Origin: Escherichia coli
Lineage (GTDB): Bacteria; Pseudomonadota; Gammaproteobacteria; Enterobacterales; Enterobacteriaceae
Length of the DNA: 64,000 nucleotides
Direction: 5' to 3' (one strand)
Assembly: GCF_017348835.2 (NCBI RefSeq)
Contig: NZ_CP071375.1
In this document: one piece after another, positions 40,654 through 43,254 of the stretch
Position numbering within the stretch: position 1 is the first letter of the stretch
How the letters are laid out: each line of letters begins with the position of its first letter
Program-made: the position numbers and the translations under genes
The notes under the pieces: generated by a model
The model's database searches: none
What the model was told of the DNA's origin: nothing
Seen by the model: only the letters and a program-made list of their open reading frames with translations

Positions 40654-43254
40654 TTAATGTTTTGCTACCTGACAGGTAAGATTGTTAAGTAATAAGGTGT
40701 TAGTGCTTCCCAGAGTTTGTGGCTGGGCCGGGAACTGGTAATGCAACTTACAGTCCACGGTTTGGTTGTTTTCAAACCAGCGCACGGTTAATTCCCCACT
40801 GTCGTTAATACCACGCACAAATGCCTGACCGCCCTGGCCCATACTGCCGATCATGACTTCATCCTGGTAAACCTCCGCAGCAAACGGAATCGGTTTGTCA
40901 GTGTTGGAGGTAATATTCAGCACGGCAGAACGCCCTTCGTCAGTTTCAAAACGGGTCAAAACAACGGACCCGCTACGTGGTACGGTGGTGGCGCTGGTAC
41001 TTTTCAGTTCTACGTCGTTTTCCAGCGACTCAATGTTCAGGCCTACGCGGTTTTCACGGTATGGGCTGACAGCGGACGTTACGGCATATCCCCAGCGATC
41101 GATTTCGTTATTACTGTTATTGACTCGTGCGCCTTTAGCGCCTGGGGCATTGACTAACACCAGCGTATCGTTACTGCTGAAACTGTTATTGGTAAATGTC
41201 AGACCACCGCTGTGTAACACAAAGCCGCCATCGGTTGAGATGGAGTACTGTTGGCTATTATCAGAAGAGGCAGAGGCCGAAGCGGAAATACCGCCTAACC
41301 CAGATTCATAGTTGAGATAACCGCCAACAGAAGCTAGATCGCCGTAATTTTTATCCATGCTATAACCTGTGTTGACGCTATAGTTCACCTGGCCGCTTTC
41401 ATTGCTACCGGAACTGTTCATATTCAACTGGTGTGAACCATCAAAATCGGTATTGAGCTGAGTATTTAAATTACGGAAACCGGAAGTCTTGCGTTTGCCA
41501 CCGAAAATATTCTCAAAAGGCACGCTAACGCTGACATACATTGCGTCATCTTTATCGCCATCTTCATTCCAGCTACGTTGCAGGTTAACGCTGAAGCTAC
41601 CCCACGAAACGCTTTTACTGTAACCGACGTTATATTCAGTCCTGCTATTGTTCGCCGCCCAGTAGTCCGTCCAGCTACCGGAAATAAACAGCGAACCGTA
41701 ATCGACATAGGCGATGTTCAACGGTTGGTTGATGCTGACGGTAAACTGGTTTTTCATGCGTGAGTATGTCTGCATGGTGTTTTTGTCTTCATCGGCAGAC
41801 ATATGTTTCGCGTCGTCAATGAGGACTAACGCGTCATGCAGGCCCAGGTAATCCTGGGTGGAATAGCGGTAAGCCGCCAGGTTAAATGATGTTCCGGTAT
41901 CCTGGAAAAGTTTGTTCCAGGTTACGCGATAACTTTGCCCCTGGTAGGTTTTATCATCCGGAATTTCAGCGCGGGAATGGGTAACGTCCATCGCAAAAGC
42001 ACCGATGCTGGTGTTAATACCCACACCTAACAGTCCGGCAAGATAGTTGTTGTCGGTGAACTGAATGCCGGTGTAACCCGTGAAGAGGTTATTCAGACCA
42101 TAGTAATAAGAGGCTTGCCCCATATTAGGTTCGGATCGCAGGCTGTCATCAATAACTTTACCGGCACTGAAATCCCAACGACCCACGCCAGGACGCTGCA
42201 TCTGCACGACGGAGGAGAAGGGCTGCGTAAAGGAACGTTTGGAACCATCCGCTTCTTCAATGGTAATAACCAGTTCGCTACCAAATCCGGAAGGGCTGAT
42301 GTCATCAATAACAAACTCACCTGGCGGAACGGTGGTTTCATAGATTTTATAGCCGTTCTGCGTCACGGTAACTTTGGCGTTAGAGTTTGCCACACCACGA
42401 ATGGTCGGGGCGTAGCTGGCTAACGCAGAAGGCAGCATACGGCTGTCACTGTACAGGCGAACACCCCGGACGTTGACAGAGTCAAACGTTTCACCGGTGG
42501 TGTAGGCATCACCCATGATTATCTGTGAACGTATTGCCGGAATATCACGCTGTAGGTAACGATCCTGGAAATCGAAATCACTGCCGCTATCTGTTGTCCA
42601 GTTATAGTTGCCGCGCGCACGGAAATGCCAGGCACCTAAATTGATACCTGAGTTAAATGCGCCATAGACACTATCGTTATTGTTGTCTTCTGAACTTGTG
42701 TGATACGCGTTCAAGGAATACGACAGCGTGGCAGCGTTAATTCCCGACTCCCATAAGGAAGGATCAACGTAGCCGCCATAGCTCTTCAGGACATAGGCCT
42801 GAGGAATGGTCAGATCGAGATACTGGTCACTGCCATCAAATTGAACTTCGGCCTGATCGTATGACTTTGCCAGATCAAGACAGTCTTCTTCTTCACCTTC
42901 TCTGGCGAGTAGGGTCACAAGCTGTTCGGATTGTTTAATGTGTAACTGCGCCAGGTTTTTGCGGGTAATACAGGCCGCCGCGCTGTTTTCACCAATATCC
43001 ACAAACGGAATTTCTAAACTGGAGGTGGCCTGACCGTTTACAAACACGCGGACATTATAAAGACCCGGCGGTGTCGGGTTACCTTGAGCATAGCGTTTAA
43101 CATCAATGGTTGATGAGCCAGTTCCCATTAAGAAGGAACTGTCATATTCCACCGTGTCTGCCGCAGCACCGTTGCTGCTATAAAGGAGGGCGCAACAGGC
43201 CGCAAGTAGCGTTTTTTTCGGTGTACGACTTTTGTGATGAGTAAACTGGTACAA
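40654..43254 (-). CDS. htrE: outer-membrane fimbrial usher (FimD/PapC family)
   Basis: 866-aa ORF; no in-frame ATG upstream of signal peptide, first codon is TTG at 43252-43254 (start tentative). Confidence 0.85.
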   Translation of the reverse strand: MYQFTHHKSRTPKKTLLAACCALLYSSNGAAADTVEYDSSFLMGTGSSTIDVKRYAQGNPTPPGLYNVRVFVNGQATSSLEIPFVDIGENSAAACITRKNLAQLHIKQSEQLVTLLAREGEEEDCLDLAKSYDQAEVQFDGSDQYLDLTIPQAYVLKSYGGYVDPSLWESGINAATLSYSLNAYHTSSEDNNNDSVYGAFNSGINLGAWHFRARGNYNWTTDSGSDFDFQDRYLQRDIPAIRSQIIMGDAYTTGETFDSVNVRGVRLYSDSRMLPSALASYAPTIRGVANSNAKVTVTQNGYKIYETTVPPGEFVIDDISPSGFGSELVITIEEADGSKRSFTQPFSSVVQMQRPGVGRWDFSAGKVIDDSLRSEPNMGQASYYYGLNNLFTGYTGIQFTDNNYLAGLLGVGINTSIGAFAMDVTHSRAEIPDDKTYQGQSYRVTWNKLFQDTGTSFNLAAYRYSTQDYLGLHDALVLIDDAKHMSADEDKNTMQTYSRMKNQFTVSINQPLNIAYVDYGSLFISGSWTDYWAANNSRTEYNVGYSKSVSWGSFSVNLQRSWNEDGDKDDAMYVSVSVPFENIFGGKRKTSGFRNLNTQLNTDFDGSHQLNMNSSGSNESGQVNYSVNTGYSMDKNYGDLASVGGYLNYESGLGGISASASASSDNSQQYSISTDGGFVLHSGGLTFTNNSFSSNDTLVLVNAPGAKGARVNNSNNEIDRWGYAVTSAVSPYRENRVGLNIESLENDVELKSTSATTVPRSGSVVLTRFETDEGRSAVLNITSNTDKPIPFAAEVYQDEVMIGSMGQGGQAFVRGINDSGELTVRWFENNQTVDCKLHYQFPAQPQTLGSTNTLLLNNLTCQVAKH

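Follow-up and report, generated by a model that had tools for sequence, protein, structure and literature searches.

The question raised by this stretch of Escherichia coli DNA (64,000 nucleotides, hereafter the window) is why a gene for a fimbrial outer-membrane usher should open with TTG, whether that codon is the true start of translation and, if so, whether it holds the usher below the other components of its fimbrial system. The gene, which occupies the position of htrE, lies at 40654..43254 on the minus strand and encodes 866 amino acids (WP_053883406.1 of the Prokaryotic Genome Annotation Pipeline, PGAP). An earlier inspection of the letters of the window (the sequence-only reading) had placed its start at the TTG at 43254..43252 (-) and had proposed that weak initiation tunes the usher down relative to the pilin subunits. 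The placement coincides with the PGAP start; the TTG start is thus already part of the public annotation. Our in silico analysis indicates that this TTG is almost certainly the real initiation codon of the usher. The overall explanation we favour, with high confidence, is that the TTG is the real start of a divergent usher at the yad/htrE position, that it is probably a minor layer of dosage control, and that the chief drop in expression is probably due to a hairpin that follows yadN, the major pilin gene.

The product matches all three Pfam domains expected along an usher: PapC_N (PF13954, E = 1.1e-38, residues 36-183, with the full model covered), the Usher domain comprising the beta-barrel and plug region (PF00577, E = 3.1e-157, residues 198-769, model positions 2-549 of 549) and PapC_C (PF13953, E = 1.6e-15, residues 779-842). 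On these domains, a predicted signal peptide and its operon context, the gene is that of an outer-membrane usher of the chaperone-usher pathway. Start codons throughout the window were read from the PGAP annotation of E. coli PE164, a pig isolate (NZ_CP114128.1, 4044273-4108272), and mapped in. The reverse complement of the window is identical to NZ_CP114128.1 over the 32,000 bases compared, the usher region gave a 100% match in megablast, and all 53 annotated complete genes fit the window in frame. The annotation of K-12 MG1655 served as a second source for the starts of genes common to both genomes.

Initiation site of the usher gene

The usher frame is closed upstream by an in-frame TAA at 43288..43290 (-). 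From this stop to codon 45, the only ATG, GTG or TTG codons in frame are the TTG at codon 1 (43252..43254, -), a GTG at codon 35 and an ATG at codon 43. The latter two fall past the predicted signal peptide, so that initiation at either would yield a product lacking it. The TTG is therefore the sole codon of these three types before the signal peptide, and our in-frame scan agrees with the sequence-only reading, which had held that htrE has only a TTG available and no in-frame ATG ahead of the signal peptide. The only near-cognate codon in the upstream frame is an ATC six codons before the TTG, which has no ribosome-binding site.

The predicted signal peptide spans codons 1-32 (43159..43254, -), reading MYQFTHHKSRTPKKTLLAACCALLYSSNGAAA and then DTVEYD. 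Both the peptide and its cleavage site were assigned by hand from a hydropathy profile, in which a basic N-terminal stretch (K8, R10, K13 and K14) precedes a hydrophobic core at residues 15-24, with AAA immediately before D33. Because the signal peptide is removed on export, leaving the mature end near D33 wherever translation begins, N-terminal proteomics cannot reveal the start of this protein.

A Shine-Dalgarno-like AGGAA stands 7 nucleotides (nt) upstream of the TTG (43262..43266, -, read from the sequence). Its duplex with the 3' end of 16S rRNA has a calculated energy of -4.3 kcal/mol, the best among the candidate usher starts, and folding of the region found no RNA structure that would hide the AGGAA or the TTG (-6.8 kcal/mol, z = +0.78). 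Our assignment of the TTG as the actual start follows from the exclusion of the alternatives together with the conservation of the unit formed by AGGAA, spacer and start codon, which is described below.

The yad locus and its start site in related genomes

The fimbrial operon of the window (37719-44700, -) sits between folK and panB and has the order found in K-12: yadN, chaperone, usher and four subunits. The major fimbrial subunit gene, the positional yadN (44107..44700, -, PGAP), carries a Fimbrial domain, and the PapD-like chaperone gene, the positional yadV (43295..44020, -, PGAP), carries PapD_N and PapD_C; both start with ATG. The TAA that ends the chaperone gene (43297..43295, -) lies 40 nt before the usher TTG, and four more fimbrial genes are annotated by PGAP downstream of the usher. 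The usher is 60% identical in amino acid sequence to K-12 HtrE, the six neighbouring Yad proteins range from 25 to 60% against their K-12 counterparts (the subunits from 25 to 48%), and the flanking PanB, PanC and FolK show 97.7%, 99.6% and 91% identity, respectively. On these comparisons the yad locus of the window carries a divergent allele. Its position between near-identical panB/panC and a folK that has diverged to some degree suggests either ancient allelic replacement or balanced polymorphism. The window allele family is carried by approximately 420 of 5,426 complete E. coli genomes, among them O157:H7, O145 and O55:H7.

The closest known systems are the Yad fimbriae of K-12 and CFT073 (yadN-yadV(ecpD)-htrE-yadMLKC). 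With their HtrE, the window usher shares the position between folK and panB, the seven-gene order, the three usher domains, the layout of AGGAA followed by 7 nt, and a start codon other than ATG. It differs in that its start is TTG while theirs is GTG, and in having only 60% identity to the K-12 protein. A published criterion for a 'Yad positive' strain is at least 80% identity to the HtrE of EC958 (PMC13245861), and at its level of identity to K-12 HtrE the window usher would probably fall below that threshold, whose reference is the EC958 protein. These comparisons suggest that the window usher is the positional orthologue of a divergent allele family and that htrE is for it a name by position; annotators should use the K-12 gene name with care for the divergent allele.

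To place the start codon in a wider context, we compared 16 start regions, all at the same chromosomal position and hence positional orthologues. The sample comprised five members of the window family, two of a second family with about 75% DNA identity (EC28 and AZ147), K-12, CFT073, E. coli O78 strain 3 and six loci from a DNA-pattern scan of species-representative genomes. The scan returned 10 loci, six of which were positional yad ushers (E. albertii, Escherichia sp. E1V33, E. whittamii, the K-12-like E. coli SCPM, Pseudocitrobacter and Citrobacter portucalensis), each with the gene order pcnB-folK-yadN-yadV-usher. The remaining four loci, in assemblies of Bacteroidetes and Nitrospirae, were set aside; the two that were translated lacked usher context, and about four chance matches are expected by a hand estimate.

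The start site is TTG in 12 of the 16 sequences (PE164, O157:H7, O145, O157:H16, SCU-316, O78 strain 3, EC28, AZ147, E. albertii, E1V33, E. whittamii and Pseudocitrobacter) and GTG in the other four (K-12, SCPM, CFT073 and C. portucalensis); ATG occurs in none of the 16, which represent approximately 6-7 deep lineages. AGGAA and its 7-nt spacing are kept in every sequence, including the GTG-starting alleles of K-12 and CFT073, and ATCGCCAGGAAYGCAACCTTGTA is nearly unchanged between alleles, a conserved island within a diverged spacer. At four-fold degenerate sites, by comparison, the window allele differs from those of EC28, AZ147, E. whittamii and Pseudocitrobacter at 62-73% of positions, near saturation. 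Fourteen of the 16 sequences lack any in-frame ATG before the signal-peptide core. Within E. coli, a 41-nt stretch around the start has matches in 417 complete genomes, with TTG in all 417 and complete identity in 416; the sole variant, O78 strain 3, differs by a C-to-T change ahead of the ribosome-binding site, and its TTG is intact.

Judged from these alignments, the non-ATG state of the usher at the yad position is old. The non-ATG start is conserved among the orthologues, although as statistical evidence this conservation is weak. We consider the TTG of the usher in itself an ordinary and already annotated observation, and its alternation with GTG, never ATG, across related genera to be only mildly interesting.

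As a side observation on the same region, a run of seven A residues (A7, 43212-43218, -) encodes two of the signal-peptide lysines. The run, a potential slippage site, is kept in most alleles of the window family, broken in AZ147 and absent in K-12; no variation in its length was seen among the alleles compared.

Dosage of the usher and rival explanations

Stoichiometric down-tuning of the usher by its start codon, as the sequence-only reading proposed, is plausible on sequence grounds. The 30S subunit would bind the AGGAA 7 nt upstream and fMet-tRNA would initiate on UUG, giving a precursor that loses its 32-residue signal peptide during export. Both UUG and the GUG found in K-12-type alleles are canonical starts weaker than AUG, and the UUG would probably reduce usher output to some extent compared with that of the chaperone and subunit genes, which are carried on the same transcript and start with ATG. 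Reporter measurements put initiation at GUG and UUG at 10-100% of that at AUG (Hecht et al., bioRxiv 10.1101/063800). Both in the window operon and in the yad operon of K-12, six of the seven genes start with ATG and the usher alone does not. Where the start lies, that it has no alternative and that its layout is conserved can be read directly; a lowered output and selection for it are what we infer. A literature search for usher start codons or usher stoichiometry returned nothing relevant.

The weak start would be one minor layer of dosage control. The principal drop, from pilin to the genes that follow it, is probably the work of a hairpin directly after the yadN stop (44062..44089, -). It has a 12-bp stem, a 4-nt loop and a U-rich tail reaching to about 44047. 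The hairpin came to light on folding and was absent from the list of a simple terminator scan: a 71-nt stretch including it has a folding energy of -20.4 kcal/mol (z = -3.67), and none of 200 shuffled sequences was as stable. The same hairpin is present in O157:H7 and E. whittamii with pairing kept despite differences, two G-U wobbles in the stem of the window allele replacing an A-U and a C-G pair. At the same place, the K-12 allele has a 13-bp hairpin of unrelated sequence followed by UUUU. Because structure is conserved without sequence, these comparisons suggest a candidate terminator, attenuator or mRNA stabiliser between yadN and the chaperone gene. In the pap and fim operons, a hairpin or processing site after the major pilin gene is the usual route by which pilin is made far in excess of the assembly machinery. 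The post-yadN hairpin resembles those of that paradigm in its stability, U-rich tail, position directly after the pilin gene and conservation as a structure, and it would act as a separate layer of control, distinct from the usher start codon. Together, the weak usher start and the conserved hairpin suggest two layers of dosage control in this fimbrial operon.

A stronger proposal is that selection holds the usher at the yad position on TTG or GTG across Escherichia, Pseudocitrobacter and Citrobacter, capping its synthesis relative to the chaperone. We offer it tentatively, and lean somewhat towards doubting it; if it were true, such a cap might avoid outer-membrane pore toxicity or envelope stress. 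A number of points weigh against assigning the TTG an important or selected role. The start is ambiguous in two of the sequences compared, since in E. whittamii the TTG is followed two codons later by an ATG (approximately 8339-8347 of the fetched locus) and C. portucalensis has several in-frame ATGs available besides its GTG. The pattern used for the orthologue scan required VEYDxxFLMG and thus covers yad-type ushers only, and the conservation concerns one nucleotide position in some 6-7 related deep lineages; taking six lineages as independent and A, G and T as equally likely, the probability of finding no ATG is (2/3)^6 = 0.09. A weak start is also unsupported as a general rule for ushers. 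In nine chaperone-usher operons of K-12, seven ushers start with ATG and two with GTG (htrE and ybgQ), compared with 19 ATG and no other start among pilins, 10 ATG and one GTG (fimC) among chaperones, and seven ATG and one TTG (sfmH) among adhesins. The two non-ATG ushers of nine do not differ significantly from the pilins (0/19, Fisher p = 0.095) or from the other operon genes taken together (2/38, p = 0.16), and they are in line with a 17% background (P = 0.47). Since seven of nine K-12 ushers use ATG, a weak start is unnecessary for usher function. The reduction to be expected from the TTG is modest, because the AGGAA is well spaced, the start region is unstructured and UUG retains 10-100% of AUG activity. 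Because H-NS keeps the yad operon silent under laboratory conditions (PMC13245861), selection on the rate of usher translation may be weak. As an explanation of pilin excess, finally, the post-yadN hairpin is a more conventional candidate than the TTG. If the hairpin sets the level of pilin, the TTG would at most shift the balance between the usher on one side and the chaperone and minor subunits on the other.

These points lead directly to a serious rival, to which we give an even chance: the TTG is the true start and has no regulatory meaning, a slightly sub-optimal state tolerated in a poorly expressed, H-NS-silenced operon. It would persist by shared ancestry and because, of the changes open to its first base, only T-to-A and T-to-G keep a start codon. 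Start codons are under weak selection, which acts most strongly on highly expressed genes (Belinky et al. 2017, PMC5622118), so that neutral persistence fits the data about equally well and counts against a selected cap. Repression of the yad operon by H-NS (PMC13245861) points the same way, as do the at least one switch of the usher start between TTG and GTG, the lack of a general enrichment of ushers for non-ATG starts, and a frequency of non-ATG starts in the window that equals the genomic background. What neutral persistence accommodates less readily is that no lineage has acquired ATG at the start site even though silent sites are saturated, that genome-wide pressure favours ATG (Belinky et al. 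2017, PMC5622118), and that the usher is the sole non-ATG gene in both forms of the operon.

Two further explanations dispute the start itself or the gene, and we regard both as highly improbable. Translation might begin elsewhere, either at the near-cognate ATC six codons upstream or at an out-of-frame ATG at 43262..43260 (-), which precedes the TTG by 8 nt, within the spacer, and opens a +1 frame of 44 codons that a single extra A in the A7 run (43218..43212) would fuse to the usher. This ATG directly abuts AGGA, leaving no room for normal spacing; it is ACG in EC28 and AZ147, and the spacer of the K-12 clade contains no ATG. Moreover, the residues THHKSR encoded in the TTG frame before the A run resemble YHHLTR of K-12, with silent changes among the differences, so that the TTG frame is the conserved protein frame. 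We therefore rejected the ATG with slippage, and likewise the ATC, which has no ribosome-binding site and weaker pairing with the rRNA; in the reporter systems examined, near-cognate codons reach only 0.02-3% of the AUG level (Hecht et al., bioRxiv 10.1101/063800). The gene might alternatively be a decaying pseudogene that has lost its ATG, with the TTG simply the choice of an open reading frame finder. The missing ATG and the cryptic, silenced operon would suit such a history, but the 866-codon frame is intact and carries the three usher domains at high scores, more than 400 E. coli genomes and members of other genera share this architecture, and the characterised Yad system of CFT073 likewise has a non-ATG start (GTG) at its usher.

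Other starts and features of the window

The window holds coaE, guaC, the pyruvate dehydrogenase genes, acnB, speED, panBCD, the seven-gene fimbrial operon, folK-pcnB, hrpB, mrcB, fhuACDB and hemL. Its 53 complete genes comprise 46 with ATG, four with GTG, two with TTG and one with ATT as start codon. Against an E. coli background of 83% ATG, 14% GTG and 3% TTG (Hecht et al., bioRxiv 10.1101/063800), the seven non-ATG starts compare with 9.0 expected and the two TTG starts with 1.6, the probability of at least two TTG being 0.47. There is thus no local enrichment of non-ATG starts in the 64-kb window. The remark in the sequence-only reading that several genes of the window start with non-ATG codons is true (7/53), but the number is ordinary for any stretch of E. 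coli DNA of this size: the non-ATG starts are the already annotated starts of well-known genes, at normal genomic frequency.

For the individual genes that it had named besides the usher (TTG for speD; GTG for panC, fhuB, hrpB and acnB), PGAP and the K-12 annotation concur throughout. Between the upstream stop and codon +40 of speD, the TTG (23296..23294, -) is the one start codon in frame, and a literature search for a speD UUG start returned nothing relevant. The GTG starts are those of panC (36779..36777, -), fhuB (59246-59248, +), hrpB (49895-49897, +) and acnB (19330-19332, +). That of fhuB overlaps the stop of fhuD by four bases (GTGA, 59246-59249, +), an arrangement typical of translational coupling. 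An in-frame ATG stands 15 codons upstream of the hrpB GTG, at 49850 (+); the acnB GTG is preceded by three, at distances of 7, 9 and 51 codons, the first two at 19303-19311 (+). Because of these upstream ATGs, the GTG calls of hrpB and acnB depend on annotation and not on necessity.

The ATT of pcnB (46916..46914, -), given by both PGAP and the K-12 annotation, is absent from the list in the sequence-only reading. The best-known expression-limiting start codon in this region is that of pcnB, and Binns and Masters are said to have shown experimentally, in 2002, the limiting role of its AUU. Like the usher, pcnB and infC pair a sub-optimal start with a product needed in small amounts, and in the case of pcnB the two lie in the same window. 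They differ in strength: the AUU of pcnB and infC is non-canonical and works at approximately 1-3% of AUG, whereas UUG is canonical, in the 10-100% range. Among E. coli genes, these two alone have a confirmed AUU start (Hecht et al., bioRxiv 10.1101/063800). At its other end, pcnB overlaps the start of folK by four bases (45519-45522, -), again typical of translational coupling.

The yad fimbrial operon has been linked to bloodstream infection by pathogenic E. coli (PMC13245861). Elsewhere in the window, a 180-bp gene fragment lies between panC and rpnC (35653-35832, +), which PGAP marks as incomplete with its N-terminus missing; at the corresponding place CFT073 has a fragment that is annotated as a transposase remnant. 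The sole Rfam match in the whole window is the small RNA tp2 (103 bits, 10732-10845, -), antisense and just upstream of aceE.

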